From: an uncultured delta proteobacterium
GTDB lineage: Bacteria; Desulfobacterota; RBG-13-43-22
NCBI GenBank assembly: GCA_963743305.1
Contig: CAVUPH010000014.1
Location: 32,001 to 96,000 of the forward strand
Direction: 5' to 3'
Length of the DNA stretch: 64,000 nt
The notes beneath the pieces were generated by a model. It saw only the letters and a program-made list of their open reading frames with translations, was not told where the DNA came from and ran no database searches. A program made the translations under genes and the position numbers. Positions 2,574 through 29,896 of this stretch are shown piece by piece; position 1 is the stretch's first letter; the number at the start of each line of letters is the position of its first letter.

Positions 2574-3819
2574 TCAGGCCATCAACTCCTGGACCGAAAA
2601 CCAGAGGAGGGCCAGGCTGAGCAGGATAAGGATGCCCACCGTCGCCCAGGACACTTTATTATAGAGGGGTGAGTTTTTAAAAGCTCCCATCAGCTTCACC
2701 CGGTTGATCAGGAGAAGGATAAAAATCAAAATAAAGGGCAGCAGCAGGCCGTTGATCACCTGGGAGAGCAGCATAATCAGAATCAAAGGGGCCTTAGGGA
2801 TCAACACCAACCCCCCGCCCAGAATGATCAGCCCGGTGTAGAGCCACATGAATTGCGGGGCTTCTTTAAAATCCTTGTTGATGCCCGCCTCCCAGCCCAT
2901 CCCCTCGCAGATCACATAGGCCGTGCTCAAGGGCAGGATGGAAGCCGCAAACAGCGAGGCATTGGCCAGACCCAGGGCGAAGAGGAGACTGGCATATTTG
3001 CCGGCCAACGGCGCCAGGGCCACGGCCGCGTCTTCGGCCGTTCGGATGGGGATGTTGTGCACATGAAGCGTGGCCGCACAGGCCACCACAATAAAGAAGG
3101 CCACCACCACGGCCATGATGCAACCGATAATTACGTCCCAGCGGACATACCGGTAATCCTTGGTCCGTATCCCTTTTTCCACAATGGAGGATTGCTGATA
3201 AAACTGCATCCAGGGGGCGATCGTCGTCCCCACCACTCCGATCAGCATCATCATATAGGAACGGTCCAGTTGTATCCGGGGATGGACCATTTCCTGAAAG
3301 ACCCCACCCCAGGCCGGATGGGCCATAAAACCGGAGATGATATACGACAAATAGATCGTGCAGGCCACCAGAAAAACCTTTTCCACGAAATCGATAACTG
3401 CCCTTGACCACCAAAAACCAGACCAGAAATCCCCCGGCGGGGATGGCTATATAGCGGTTCACTCCCAGGATTTCCAGGCTGGCGGCCAACCCGGCAAATT
3501 CCGCCATGATATTCCCCAGGTTAGTCAGCAGCAGGGCCAACAGGACCAGAAAGGTGATCTTGACCCCGAACTCCTCCCGGATCAGGTCCGAAAGACCTTT
3601 CCCGGTGACCACTCCCAGACGGGCCACCATTTCCTGCACCATAATCAACAGGACGGTGATCGGGATCAGGGACCAGAGCAACCCATAACCGTAATGCGCC
3701 CCGGCCAGGGAATAGGTGGTGATCCCCCCGGCATCGTTGTCCACGTTGGCCGTAATTATCCCGGGTCCCACGATACTGAGAAAAAAAAGGAGGCGCTTCC
3801 GGTTCATAGTCCAGCCCAT
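2574..3819 (-). CDS. NRAMP-family divalent metal transporter, NrmT-like Mg2+ type (frameshifted)
   Basis: GPGIITANVDNDAGGITTY and GTTIAPWMQFYQQS motifs are split over ORFs 2866..3819 and 2574..3386. Confidence 0.85.
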
Positions 3820-3828
3820 AATCCGGCC

Positions 3829-5064
3829 CTATCTTCTCCGCCTCAAGGGGGTGGGCAGGAGGATATCGACGATGTCATCCACGGTGATGATCCCCAGCAT
3901 CTGGTCTTCCTCATCGACCACCGGCACGGCCATGAGATTGTATTTGGAGACCATTTCCGCCACTTCTTTCTTATCCACCTCGGAATGGACCTTTTTGGGA
4001 TTGGTTTTCATCAACTCTCCCAACAGCATCTCCGGGGCAGCCAGGATCAAGTCTTTCAGCGAGAGGACCCCCTCCAGATGATCGTCCTTGTCCAGGATAT
4101 AGAGGTAATAGATCATCTCCACGTCGGGGGCCAACAGGCGGAGGGACTGCATGGCCTCGGCCACGGTGGCCTCCTTGGGAAAGGAAACGTAATCCGTGGT
4201 CATCAGGCCCCCGGCGGAATCCTCATCGTGTTCCAGAAGTTCCTGAACATCGCAGGCCTCTTTCTCCTCCATTAAATTCAGGATCTCTTTGGCCTGGCTT
4301 TCGGGGAGGTCCCCCAGGACGTCGGCGGCCTCATCCGGTTCCATCACCTCCAGGACATCGGCCGCCTCCCCGGGCTCCATCTGCTTGAAGATATTGGCCC
4401 GGGTTTCCTCATCCAGTTCATACAGGGCTTCCCCGGCCTTCTCTTTCCCCACCGCGTCGATCAGGCTGGAACGTTCCTGCATGGAGACTTCGGAGATGAT
4501 CTCCGCCAGATCCACGGGATGCATCTGAATCAGGTTCTTACGGGTAATGGTCAGGGTCAGGTGATCCAGCCCCGGCTCCAGGGGCTTGAGATACTGCCAG
4601 GGGATGGGGGTCCCTTTTTTGGATTTCTTAAACCCCAACCGCCGGACCAGCCCTCCCAGCCCCACGTCAATCGCCAGGAGACCGAAATCCCCGTTGACCC
4701 GGCCCAGCCGGACATCATTGACCCGGACCACCTTGACCCCGTTGATATCGACTACCTGCTTATCCATGATATGCTCGGCGATCAGGATTTCGTGGGCCTG
4801 GGGCTCAGCAGAAACCAGGGACTCTTCGGAACCCCGGAAGGCGATCACCTTGCGGTTTAACACGTCCACGTCCATCAGGAGAATATAGAACAGCCCCCGG
4901 CGCCCTTTGACATACAAGCCCTCCACCAGGGGATAGGCCTCCCCCGGCACCACCCGCAGGTCTTTCACCCGCCCGATTTCGTTTCCCCGCTGATCCAGCA
5001 CGGGATGATTCAGCAGTTCACTTAAGAATATGTCGTCGGTGATCATCGGAATTCCCTCAATCAC
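3829..5064 (-). CDS. MgtE intracellular-domain protein (PRC barrels, MgtE_N, CBS pair; no transmembrane part)
   Basis: KQVVDINGVKVVRVND, MHPVDLAEII, MEPDEAADVL, SAGGLMTTDY and GIITVDDIVD motifs. Confidence 0.85.
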   Translation of the reverse strand: MIEGIPMITDDIFLSELLNHPVLDQRGNEIGRVKDLRVVPGEAYPLVEGLYVKGRRGLFYILLMDVDVLNRKVIAFRGSEESLVSAEPQAHEILIAEHIMDKQVVDINGVKVVRVNDVRLGRVNGDFGLLAIDVGLGGLVRRLGFKKSKKGTPIPWQYLKPLEPGLDHLTLTITRKNLIQMHPVDLAEIISEVSMQERSSLIDAVGKEKAGEALYELDEETRANIFKQMEPGEAADVLEVMEPDEAADVLGDLPESQAKEILNLMEEKEACDVQELLEHDEDSAGGLMTTDYVSFPKEATVAEAMQSLRLLAPDVEMIYYLYILDKDDHLEGVLSLKDLILAAPEMLLGELMKTNPKKVHSEVDKKEVAEMVSKYNLMAVPVVDEEDQMLGIITVDDIVDILLPTPLRRRR

Positions 5065-5534
5065 TAAAATCGAAGCGTGGCCTTTAGCCGTTTGGGATTC
5101 AAGAGCAGATCCAGGCCGTCCTGGGCGCTGCGAACCAGTATGTTCGCCGCCTTGATCGCCTCCACCGCGCAGCCTTCCCCCTCGACGACGGCTATGCCCA
5201 CCCGGGCCGCGGAGAGCATCTTCCGGTCGTTGTTGCCGTTGCCCAGGGCCACCACCTTCTCCGGTCCCAGGTCTTTCACCTGGGCCTCTTTTTGAAGGTC
5301 ATGGTCGGCGCCGGTCAGAATAGCAATGGTACAGTTTACCTTTTCCAGGGCTTCCCTGGCCTTGCCAAAGGTATCCGCCGTGAGGATTTGGACCTGCATA
5401 AATTCACTTATTCGGTTCAATCGATCCTCCACACCCGGAAGAAGCTACCCCATCCACCGACAGGGTCCCGGTAAAATCGGAGACCAGATACTCCACCTTC
5501 ACTTCTCCAAAACCCGGAATATCAACAGATACAT
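5064..5534 (-). CDS. HAD-family soluble P-type-ATPase-like protein, copy 1 (frameshifted)
   Basis: SDFTGTLSVDG, LTADTFG and GNGNNDRKML motifs; paralog of 18436..18909. Confidence 0.8.
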
Positions 5535-5724
5535 AATCTCTCCTGGAGGCTGCGCTTAATAGAGAAGAATAACCCGATAAGGGGGCTAATGACAACCCCT
5601 TTTTTCATGTAAAACCTCCGGTCCCGGGGGATACGAGGCGGAGATGGGATCCCCAAGGGTGATGCCCGGGGGAAAGACCGAGTCGGTCTATCTTCGGGCG
5701 CGGTAAGATCTTTCATAAATAGGC

Positions 5725-5916
5725 CTACAACGCAGCCCGAAAGCCGCCGCCGGACCGACCACGGCTCCCAGGGTCATGCTCGAAAGGCCAGCAAGAACGG
5801 CAAAGCAGCAGGGAATAGACCATCTCCGAACTGAAATCCATGAAGAAGCTGACGATCCCGGCAAAAAAAATATTTCTCTGGAGACCAACTATTTTTCTCG
5901 AATCATCTTGCGTCAT
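5725..5916 (-). pseudogene. MFS transporter remnant with internal deletion
   Basis: [21 protein letters not shown] joins almost directly to [10 protein letters not shown]; both match parts of the MFS at 18939..20130. Confidence 0.7.
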
Positions 5917-6067
5917 GGCGACTTCTCTCGCTATAATATTCTTGGTTACATTTTAACTTCTATTAGATACTCCAACAATACTAAAGAACGTCTGGCGGGA
6001 AAAGAAGTACCCCAAGTATTTGGAGGGGTCGTTTATTCATTTCACAAGAATTCGGGAGGAGCACACA

Positions 6068-28564: not shown

Positions 28565-28582
28565 AGAACACCTCCTATTCTT

Positions 28583-29725
28583 CTAAATGCTCCGAAGTAG
28601 AGTAGAACCATTAAGATCGGGTAATTCATATTTGGGATTAAACCATTTCTGGGCGATAAAGGTGGGGATGATGGCGCTCAAGACCACAACGGCCACCAGC
28701 ACAGAAAACTGGGTTCGATTGATGATACCGGCCGTCAATCCAAAAACCGATGAAATGGCTCCCACATGGTCAGACCCGTGCTCATCAACAGGGTCGTGTA
28801 CATGGCATTTTCAGGAAGATATTTTTTAGCAGGGGATAAGACCCCCACTATTTTGGTGACTTGTTTGACCAAAAGCATCTGCACCAGCAAGCCTAAACTC
28901 AATAAAAGCAATTTCAAAGAGATATTCATCCCGCCGTTGATAAAGAAGAATGGGGTAATAATGGCAAAGGCCACTACCCGAAGTCGGTGCTGTAATTTAC
29001 GGTTTTCCATAAAAATTTTGGACATGGCCAGACCCAGGACAAAGGCCGGCAGGATGGCATGGCTGGCCCCGACTTTGGCGAAAAACATAAAAACAACCAG
29101 GATGAGAAAAAGAAAATTGATCTCGGCTCAATCACCCGGTCACCGTAGCGCTTGCAGATCCAGGGATAGATCCTGGGGATAATCAGAATCGAGCAGGGCG
29201 GAAACCCCCAGAAAGAGCAGGGTGAACCACGTTGAGCTCGAGAAACAGCAGAGTAAGGGCCAGGGTTGTTCCCAAATCAGTAAAAAAAGTGGCGGCCATA
29301 AGGATCTTGCCCAGTTCGGTATTGGTTAAACCGGTTTCGACCAAGACGGCATAGACGACGGCCAGGGAGGTGGTGGAAAGGGCTATTCCGGCGATCTCAG
29401 CGGCCGGCCAGGTCCAGTCCAACAGGTAATGGGTATAAAATAAGGCACCCAGAAAAGGAGCTAAAAAAGAAACGATGGTCCGACAAGAACTTCCTTAAAT
29501 TTGGCTTTCATGACCTGGGTGTCCACCTCGGCCCCGGCCAGGAAGGTCAAGAGGATACCGCCAAAGCCGGCCAGATAGGTACTCCAGGGAGTGGGATGGA
29601 GTTCCAAAAAGTTTCCTCCGATGACACCGAGGGACATTTCAATGATGCCACTGAGAGGCCCAGCTCAACCCGAAGAAGATTGGCGAGGATGGTGCGGAGA
29701 GGATAAATACGAAGATGGCGTCCAT
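28583..29725 (-). CDS. Cation:proton antiporter, CPA2-like (many frameshifts)
   Basis: ALSTTSLAVVYAVL, AATFFTDLG, ILPAFVLG, PFFFINGG and TTLLMSTGLT fragments occur in order. Confidence 0.8.
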
Positions 29726-29775
29726 TCAAAACCTCCATTACAAGGAAGCATCCTCACAATGAGCCTTCTTCGGCA

Positions 29776-29800
29776 TAAAAAAAACCGCCGGGTGGCGGGT
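29776..29800 (-). terminator. Terminator downstream of riboswitch 3
   Basis: Minus strand CCGCC...GGCGG hairpin followed by a long T run. Confidence 0.65.
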
Positions 29801-29845
29801 TCATCCGTACTCCCTAATGCCCCCCACCGCGGCAGTGACCTGCGC

Positions 29846-29896
29846 AGTAGGAGTCATTAGCTCGAATTCGGCGTTTATCGGGGGGACTCCATCCCC
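29846..29896 (-). ncRNA. Fluoride (crcB) riboswitch 3
   Basis: Minus strand reads GGGGAUGGAGUCCCCC-CGAUAAACGCC...GCUAAUGACUCCUAC. A TTGACA -35 box lies at 29926-29931. Confidence 0.92.

Follow-up and report, generated by a model that had tools for sequence, protein, structure and literature searches.

According to the accessible part of the 2024 review PMC11139923, a fluoride exporter, Fluc or CLC-F, is present in over 85% of the bacteria surveyed, and those without either tend to be reduced-genome symbionts. The same source explains the Na+/H+ antiporters that are linked to fluoride riboswitches by pH homeostasis, and gives overexpression of fluoride-inhibited enzymes as a known strategy. 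Here we describe a locus with three fluoride riboswitches in a 64,000-nt stretch of DNA (the window) on contig CAVUPH010000014.1 of an uncultured delta proteobacterium (assembly GCA_963743305.1, here G000; 43 contigs, 4.91 Mb, completeness 90.1%, contamination 5.7%). We consider it likely that this is a fluoride-response locus, carried by a bacterium of Thermodesulfovibrionia type (Nitrospirota), in which the three ON riboswitches control a dynamin-HIT unit, a prenyltransferase-like/HEAT unit and a unit of a CPA2-type antiporter and a universal stress protein (Usp), with a putative role at the membrane and in pH control. The riboswitch class and several of its associates are known already. What appears to be new, as far as our searches reach, is that one clade of bacterial dynamins and one family of prenyltransferase-like proteins stand under near-constant fluoride-riboswitch control, and that a free-living lineage has fluoride switches and no recognisable exporters. 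A literature search found no paper tying either family to fluoride riboswitches, though earlier association tables may already list them.

Fluoride aptamers were called with the Rfam covariance model RF01734 at its gathering score of 34 bits. A first-pass annotation of the window had proposed three such aptamers with terminators, at 11845, 27992 and 29846; all three positions fall inside RF01734 matches of 43.5-46.7 bits that span the full model, positions 1-64 of 64, in each case (RS1, RS2 and RS3; Table 1). They span 18.07 kb and are the only RF01734 matches in the whole 4.91 Mb genome. By folding, the RS1 terminator is a 10-bp hairpin that reuses ACUCCUGCC and is followed by UUUUUUAUUU; the hairpins of RS1 and RS2 both reuse the 3′ strand of the aptamer (ACUCCU/ACUUCU), and for RS3 the fold shows a long alternative helix, along with a stem of just 5 GC pairs and then U8. 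This is the layout of the usual transcriptional ON switch, with fluoride binding and switching predicted from sequence. Fluoride binding would prevent terminator formation at each of the three switches and allow read-through into three units. Behind RS1, on the plus strand, lie a 586-aa dynamin-family GTPase (dyn1), a palindromic repeat, a HIT gene, a 620-nt gap, a MgtA-type ATPase and an EIIA-like gene; the predicted unit comprises the GTPase, of the bacterial dynamin-like protein (BDLP) class, and then HIT. RS2, on the minus strand, would drive the prenyltransferase-like and zinc-ribbon/HEAT genes and continue, in this order, through a Cys-rich protein, PAP2, an MFS remnant amounting to half a gene and a second dynamin-family GTPase. 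RS3 is followed on the same strand by the CPA2-type antiporter and Usp. We assign to this pair a probable role in pH and cation homeostasis, in keeping with the role given to riboswitch-linked antiporters in the accessible part of PMC11139923.

Comparison within the family covered 31 genomes, that is G000 and 30 relatives, with three others in the genus and 18 others in the family. Fluoride riboswitches occur in 12 of the 31, G000 included. The targets of the 13 riboswitches in the relatives are a CPA2-type antiporter (nine, often with Usp), dynamin (two), CrcB (one) and an unclear gene (one).

The first gene behind RS1 belongs to the dynamin superfamily by both sequence and fold. By sequence, dyn1 matches PDB 2j68 (E 2.9e-27), and IniA is also matched. 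Its G1 (GxxxxGKT; G49-T56), G3 (DTPG; D143-G146) and G4 (NKAD; K202-D204) motifs are invariant in 23 sequences, 90% or more of which also keep N201. The structure model (predicted local distance difference test score, pLDDT, 75; predicted template modelling score, pTM, 0.69) has 2j68 as a whole-chain Foldseek match (E 3.4e-19, template modelling score, TM, 0.69), compared to a TM of 0.54-0.56 for IniA, and predicts the helical neck and trunk bundles of the BDLP fold, turned back onto the GTPase domain. A conserved loop at 451-482 is the candidate membrane-binding tip, modelled with a pLDDT below 50.

A scan of species-representative genomes returned 30 close dynamin-like loci (53-89% identity), of which 28 were assessable, the other two being cut at the 5′ end of the gene. 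All 28 carry a same-strand fluoride riboswitch upstream of the dynamin-like gene. In 23 the match lies no more than 260 nt upstream and in four the gene ends an operon of the form RS-CPA2-Usp(-CrcB). In the one further locus, L067, a 1.3 kb insertion (4712-6001) parts the riboswitch and first codons from the rest of the gene. The density of RF01734 matches is 44 in 0.32 Mb of dynamin loci, as opposed to 16 in ~120 Mb of the relatives' genomes. These loci are overwhelmingly labelled as Nitrospirota or Thermodesulfovibrionales-type metagenome-assembled genomes, with few other or generic labels, and the one match beyond the 30 is a distant homologue in Helicobacter (26% identity). HIT also lies 3′ of dynamin in L066, L067 and L088. 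At least nine of the 30 loci contain a CrcB homologue, and because of this the dynamin, judged by gene content, accompanies export in the wider clade and does not replace it. For the second dynamin, the 30 relatives gave only dyn1-type matches (31-32% identity) with the queries used, and neither this dynamin nor the prenyltransferase-like gene was found in these relatives with such queries, or at DNA level in five sister genomes. A ZMP/ZTP riboswitch and a selenocysteine insertion sequence (SECIS) element were observed near dynamin locus L093 (11726-11811 and 12840-12898).

The first gene behind RS2 encodes a 293-aa protein that is predicted with high model confidence (pLDDT 92.5) to be an alpha/alpha-barrel, with a TM of 0.73 and a root-mean-square deviation of 3.5 Å to the RabGGTase beta-subunit (1ltx_B) and with the squalene-hopene cyclase 8paj among its top fold matches. 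The catalytic zinc site of prenyltransferases needs Asp, Cys and His. Across 54 sequences of the family, the invariant columns include C36, C42, E48, D53, E226 and R264, and no histidine is found among the invariant or at least 90% conserved columns. We therefore do not class the protein as a prenyltransferase and refer to it as prenyltransferase-like.

A pattern scan of metagenome contigs gave 148 loci of this PRENYLTRANSFERASE-LIKE (prenyltransferase-beta-like) family, and we retained the best 80 of them (31-65% identity); a word-based search had found only five homologues. The 80 loci hold 108 RF01734 matches in 0.46 Mb. A riboswitch lies within 250 nt upstream of the prenyltransferase-like gene in 34 loci; in 26 more it is at most 4 kb upstream, on the strand of the gene, and the rest have one elsewhere (3), none (12) or less than 300 nt of upstream sequence (5). 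Collapsing at 97% identity left 65 clusters, which fall into the same classes as 29, 22, 2, 8 and 4, giving an upstream riboswitch in 51 of the 61 that are assessable. Dynamin-like genes co-occur in 36 of the 80 loci, enolase in 26, HIT in 15 and HEAT in 15, followed by CPA2 (9), MFS (8-9), the Cys-rich protein (6) and CrcB (1). Recurrent orders are RS-dynamin-enolase-prenyl-HIT, RS-dynamin-prenyl-enolase and RS-prenyl-HEAT. The HEAT gene adjoins the prenyltransferase-like gene in 14 of the 80 loci as well as in the window, and the HEAT protein of the window is 72% identical to a 178-aa protein of L066; prediction of a complex between the HEAT and prenyltransferase-like proteins gave a score of 0.01 and a mark of 0.32, which is no verdict for or against binding. 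The Cys-rich protein p169, whose homologues make up the six counted above, stands behind a riboswitch in L143 and L164. Co-conservation with fluoride riboswitches elsewhere, in support of the first-pass annotation, holds for the dynamins, HIT, HAD, MFS, CPA2, Usp and the HEAT protein.

In some metagenome loci three to five fluoride riboswitches lie within a few kb, namely in L122-L124, L127, L134, L148, L152, L162 and L176, often as divergent pairs between dynamin and prenyltransferase-like genes. A group II intron fragment ends the prenyltransferase-like locus L127 (8381-8461).

CrcB was sought with PF02537 at or above its cut-off, in G000 by six-frame translation, a search that was positive in 11 of 14 known genomes used as control. 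No CrcB was found in G000 or in the three other genomes of the genus, and one of the 18 other genomes of the family has it. Candidate CLC-F proteins were judged by the signature motifs GNNLI/GMGLI, GREGT/V and GEVTP, as given in the accessible part of PMC11139923. The single CLC of G000 lies on another contig than the window (C37:60706-61698; L004 1288-2679). It scores 152 bits to the solved CLC-F 6d0j, compared to 74 bits to ClcA, and reads GHGTE, GKEGP and GIVTP at the three signature positions; it was rejected as a hidden CLC-F as all three motifs differ. The same three motifs mark a small CLC subgroup common to G000, G002, G003, G011 and G016. No CLC match in the 31 genomes carries a CLC-F signature. 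The absence of Fluc/CrcB and CLC-F, first noticed for the window, accordingly extends to the genome and to the three others of the genus; by motif criteria, and in incomplete genomes, no canonical fluoride exporter is recognisable in the genus.

One way to read this absence is that the CPA2-type antiporter, or the MFS transporter linked to HAD, is a non-canonical fluoride exporter that replaces CrcB, which would make the response exporter-based. Riboswitches of the family precede the antiporter more often than any other gene (9/13), 17 of the 18 other family genomes are without CrcB, and MFS genes recur 3′ of dynamin in related loci. Moreover, CPA2-Usp and CrcB share one operon in more distant relatives. 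The antiporter has the Na_H_Exchanger transmembrane domain, with 128.3 bits for the L066 orthologue (cut-off 26.2); a match of 108.9 bits to TIGR00932 is below the cut-off of 238. However, Na+/H+ antiporters are known associates of these switches that the accessible part of PMC11139923 accounts for by pH homeostasis, and CPA2 is kept beside CrcB where CrcB is present, which suggests a complementary rather than a redundant function. We therefore regard replacement of CrcB as unlikely. It does bear on the wording of the first-pass annotation, which had called the response exporter-independent: a riboswitch-controlled CPA2 or MFS could export fluoride, and distant relatives keep CrcB in the locus, so that this description goes too far.

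The fluoride-response locus that we favour combines the pH role of CPA2-Usp with a part played at the membrane. Bacterial dynamins outside this clade are stress-protective. In our hypothesis the dynamins, the prenyltransferase-like and HEAT proteins and PAP2 would form a membrane or envelope module that protects or remodels the membrane that hydrogen fluoride (HF) crosses, a role favoured because of the analogy with these dynamins and because of the lipid-related folds. A wider proposal, that dynamin, prenyltransferase-like and HEAT proteins constitute an unrecognised fluoride-induced membrane module that alters or repairs the bilayer and is common among anaerobic bacteria of sediment and sludge, is tentative, and we would not bet on it. 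If true, the module may act, for example, by handling isoprenoid lipids and by fusing or dividing membranes, and so restrict the entry of HF or the envelope damage that fluoride causes; lineages like this genus could then do without Fluc or CLC-F.

Several points weigh against the fluoride-response reading. The genome is 90% complete, with 5.7% contamination. The dynamin-like and prenyltransferase-like loci are kin and hence not independent samples. In the six prenyltransferase-like clusters closest to ours (L105-L111, 35-65% identity), the upstream sequence at hand, 0.4-3.2 kb, contains no riboswitch. Operon extents past the first gene follow from strand and spacing only, and the putative membrane protection from an analogy with other bacterial dynamins. 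Lastly, frame breaks affect ~7-8 of 15 genes in the accessory block as opposed to a background of ~3/53, a density ~8-fold higher, and true gene remnants are found as MFS fragments (5806-5916 and 11581-11735), a HIT fragment (7362-7481) and the half MFS at 24407-24949. Because of the denser breaks and these remnants, the region has really been rearranged, and some real decay in the accessory block is likely.

Those last points, together with the scars of rearrangement described below, also speak for a different reading, which takes the accessory block for a decaying island: the broken MgtA, iPGM, PAP2, HEAT, Usp and CPA2 genes would be true pseudogenes, and the switches would now control little. 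MgtA, EIIA, iPGM, PAP2, HEAT, Usp, CPA2, NRAMP and the first HAD gene (HAD1) are split over frames, and one MFS is truncated. The pieces themselves are at odds with decay. Every frame piece is highly identical to its relatives, and the third codon position takes a share of 0.62-0.76 of the nucleotide differences in broken genes, as in intact controls (0.61-0.81). The antiporter has at least five indels in 1.1 kb without relaxed substitution, with 85.5% protein identity to L066 over all frame pieces and 91-92% for the four long ones. Moreover, breaks are reciprocal between G000 and the sister genome G002 in genes that are 87-97% identical, with the dynamin broken in G002 and dyn1 intact in G000. 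A gene-level test of 53 syntenic genes found ~3 split in G000 (after exclusion of one call whose query was the broken dynamin of G002 itself) and 9 with the same type of break in G002. NRAMP and HAD1 each carry a single-base insertion outside a homopolymer, at 3391 and 5446 respectively, judged against a sister genome that is 90-97% identical.

MgtA is readable in full against the G033 orthologue, with frame junctions at ~16136 and ~16420; related environmental contigs are without one base at 16136 and two bases at 16421, in exact coincidence with these junctions, and also without the extra base or bases at 18211. These contigs come from two sediment runs, the only public reads with small shares of the stretch (0.10 and 0.06), and are mostly ~88-94% alike, and thus speak for relatives only. 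Full recovery across frames is possible for both MgtA and CPA2. To judge from the third-position shares and from the reciprocity of breaks with the sister genome, the frame breaks are probably for the most part assembly indels and not decay, and we infer that the few, very long contigs of these assemblies fit long-read data. Programmed frameshifting or an alternative genetic code is implausible as a cause, since the shifts run in both directions at many unrelated sites. Wholesale decay of the block is accordingly doubtful, and the fluoride-response reading is retained.

The dynamin-like GTPases could also be induced to make up for a GTPase pool trapped by fluoride-Mg/Al phosphate analogues, rather than to defend the membrane. 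Enolase shares operons with dynamin and prenyltransferase-like genes in many loci, overexpression of inhibited enzymes is described as a strategy in the accessible part of PMC11139923, and a GDP-AlFx-bound dynamin-family assembly (8eew, by its title) is among the fold matches of dyn1. However, such compensation explains neither why only this dynamin clade among cellular GTPases is under switch control nor the tight pairing with the prenyltransferase-like protein, HEAT and PAP2, and we hold it improbable.

Table 1. Riboswitches, genes and repeat of the fluoride-response locus, in window coordinates.
Feature	Coordinates	Strand	Evidence and remarks
NRAMP (break 3391), MgtE-N/CBS, HAD copy 1 (break 5446)	2577..5529	-	conserved neighbours, not riboswitch-controlled
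Enolase	6067..7350	+	TIGR01060 647 bits; not behind riboswitch here
Fluoride riboswitch 1 (RS1) aptamer	11836..11902	+	RF01734 43.5 bits; terminator hairpin and U-run to ~11930
Dynamin-like GTPase 1 (dyn1), BDLP class, 586 aa, intact	11986..13746	+	Dynamin_N (PF00350) 101.6 bits, cut-off 27
Palindromic MITE-like repeat between dynamin and HIT genes	13736..13900	.	BLAST: 141 matches, 35 contigs of G000
HIT-family hydrolase, 153 aa, intact	13917..14378	+	PF01230 68.4 bits
MgtA-type Mg2+ P-type ATPase, at least 5 frame pieces	14999..17583	+	TIGR01524 454 and 330 bits (fragments)
PTS EIIA(Ntr)-like protein, frame shift near 18211-18311	17583..18390	+	PF00359 72.8 bits
HAD-family phosphatase copy 2, intact	18436..18909	-	
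MFS transporter copy 2, intact	18939..20123	-	MFS_1 147.9 bits; 81% identity to G002 MFS
ChrB_N-domain protein	20279..20920	+	PF20229 135.3 bits
ApgM-type cofactor-independent phosphoglycerate mutase (iPGM), frame-broken	21043..22243	+	
Dynamin-like GTPase 2, 591 aa, intact	22353..24128	-	Dynamin_N 83.7 bits; distal end of RS2 gene run
MFS, N-terminal half only, 180 aa	24407..24949	-	
PAP2 lipid phosphatase, two frames	24972..25473	-	L066 form intact, 207 aa
Cys-rich protein p169	25873..26382	-	no Pfam or NCBIfam match
Zinc-ribbon and HEAT-repeat protein, one frame break near C-terminus	26396..26876	-	HEAT_2 87 bits
Prenyltransferase-beta-like alpha/alpha-barrel protein, 293 aa	26889..27770	-	PF00432 42.4 bits; first gene after RS2
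Fluoride riboswitch 2 (RS2)	27986..28070	-	RF01734 45.9 bits; terminator 28000-27968, 14-pair stem and U-run
Universal stress protein (Usp), one frame break	28126..28564	-	
CPA2-type cation/proton antiporter, six frame pieces (at least 5 breaks)	28607..29738	-	
Fluoride riboswitch 3 (RS3)	29841..29905	-	RF01734 46.7 bits; terminator-like stem 29798-29785

The genes named at first pass (enolase, iPGM, two HAD, PAP2, HIT, MgtA, NRAMP, MgtE-N/CBS, CPA2, MFS and two dynamins) are all present, although the frame breaks and the prenyltransferase-like family had been overlooked. Enolase, NRAMP, MgtE-N/CBS and HAD1 all lie upstream of RS1, RS2 and RS3 and are neighbours, not switch targets. The pairs HAD2-MFS2 and ChrB_N-iPGM sit between switch units, none of these genes directly behind a switch. 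The mutase was rightly taken for an extra copy, a second ApgM-type copy with a better score being found on contig C7 of the same genome. Enolase had been taken for one as well, and here the claim fails: the window gene is the sole match in the genome and is 99% identical to the syntenic gene of G002, and because of both it is presumably the housekeeping copy. NRAMP adjoins a stand-alone MgtE-N and CBS protein without a membrane domain (2577-5064), an arrangement kept in G002, and the two could be a candidate regulated divalent-cation importer pair.

The first-pass annotation had joined all of these parts into one exporter-independent fluoride island at 2574-29896, with additional copies of Mg-F-sensitive enzymes, import of Mg2+, control of pH, novel exporters and remodelled membranes. 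The second iPGM copy, the recurrence of HAD, HIT, MFS, CPA2 and dynamins with riboswitches and the position of MgtA downstream of RS1 on the same strand can be cited for this model, which we think has little chance of being right. The genome has a single enolase, which no switch precedes, NRAMP, MgtE-N and HAD1 lie upstream of all switches on the strand opposite to RS1, and a P-type ATPase occurs in only two of the 30 dynamin loci. In the sister genomes G032 and G033, moreover, MgtA-EIIA does not share a contig with the riboswitch-dynamin loci.

Comparison with relatives points to a smaller conserved core. In G002 the compact order is NRAMP, MgtE-N, HAD and MFS, then enolase, HIT, RS and dynamin. 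The core of L066 is RS-dynamin-HIT-PAP2, where HEAT follows one switch and Usp-CPA2 follows another on the opposite strand. Relative to the compact core, the window carries two insertions, at 7.4-11.6 kb and ~14.4-27.8 kb, the second of which is, on this comparison, species-specific cargo inserted into the conserved core. The first holds a minus-strand cluster (7538-11516) of a 515-aa ATP-grasp/GNAT fusion, a 328-aa ATP-grasp protein like D-Ala-D-Ala ligase and a 458-aa radical SAM protein like lysine-2,3-aminomutase, whose product, to judge from these genes, may be a beta-lysine-derived compound. The cluster is also found in L067, beside MFS and RS-dynamin. In the window it is flanked by MFS and HIT remnants (5732-5916, 7362-7481 and 11581-11735), which, by comparison with G002, are scars of a rearranged compact layout of HAD-MFS and enolase-HIT-RS-dynamin. 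The repeat between dyn1 and HIT is an imperfect palindrome of ~150 bp that matches itself in reverse and resembles miniature inverted-repeat transposable elements (MITE) or repetitive extragenic palindromes (REP); many copies are present in G001 and G002, and its depth is very high in two sediment runs.

Taken together, these data make the dynamin and prenyltransferase-like families concrete candidates for coping with fluoride beyond export, and fluoride a possible physiological trigger for a bacterial dynamin. Parts of the module could aid engineered fluoride tolerance for organofluorine degradation or synthesis. Moreover, ~5 Mb genomes of free-living bacteria without a recognisable exporter contrast with the reduced-genome symbionts of PMC11139923, as described in its accessible part.

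Set beside known systems, the CLC of G000 is closer to the CLC-F fluoride/proton antiporter 6d0j than to ClcA, whereas it differs from CLC-F in having neither the signature motifs nor a riboswitch. The prenyltransferase-like protein has the predicted alpha/alpha-barrel fold of protein prenyltransferase beta-subunits and small class-II terpene cyclases, and a helical-repeat protein is often encoded beside it (14/80 loci); in contrast to them it is only 293 aa long and has no invariant His, and a heterodimer of the kind that beta-subunits form with a helical-repeat alpha-subunit is only putative. The locus as a whole resembles known fluoride riboswitch regulons in its aptamer class with terminator platforms, and the antiporter, the HAD phosphatase and, elsewhere, enolase are associates named in the accessible part of PMC11139923. 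It departs from them in that G000 and its genus are without CrcB or a signature CLC-F, and in that the first genes after RS1 and RS2, dynamin-like and prenyltransferase-like, are not among the associates given in that part of the source. Lastly, dyn1 shares Dynamin_N, the G1, G3 and G4 motifs and the full-length fold with bacterial dynamin-like proteins such as Nostoc BDLP (2j68), mycobacterial IniA (6j72) and Campylobacter DLP1/2 (5owv). It is shorter than Nostoc BDLP (586 aa compared to 680-695 for the matched 2j68 chain), and its membrane-binding tip is represented in the model only by a conserved loop of low confidence. What sets its clade apart from these proteins is a predicted fluoride riboswitch at essentially every close homologue.

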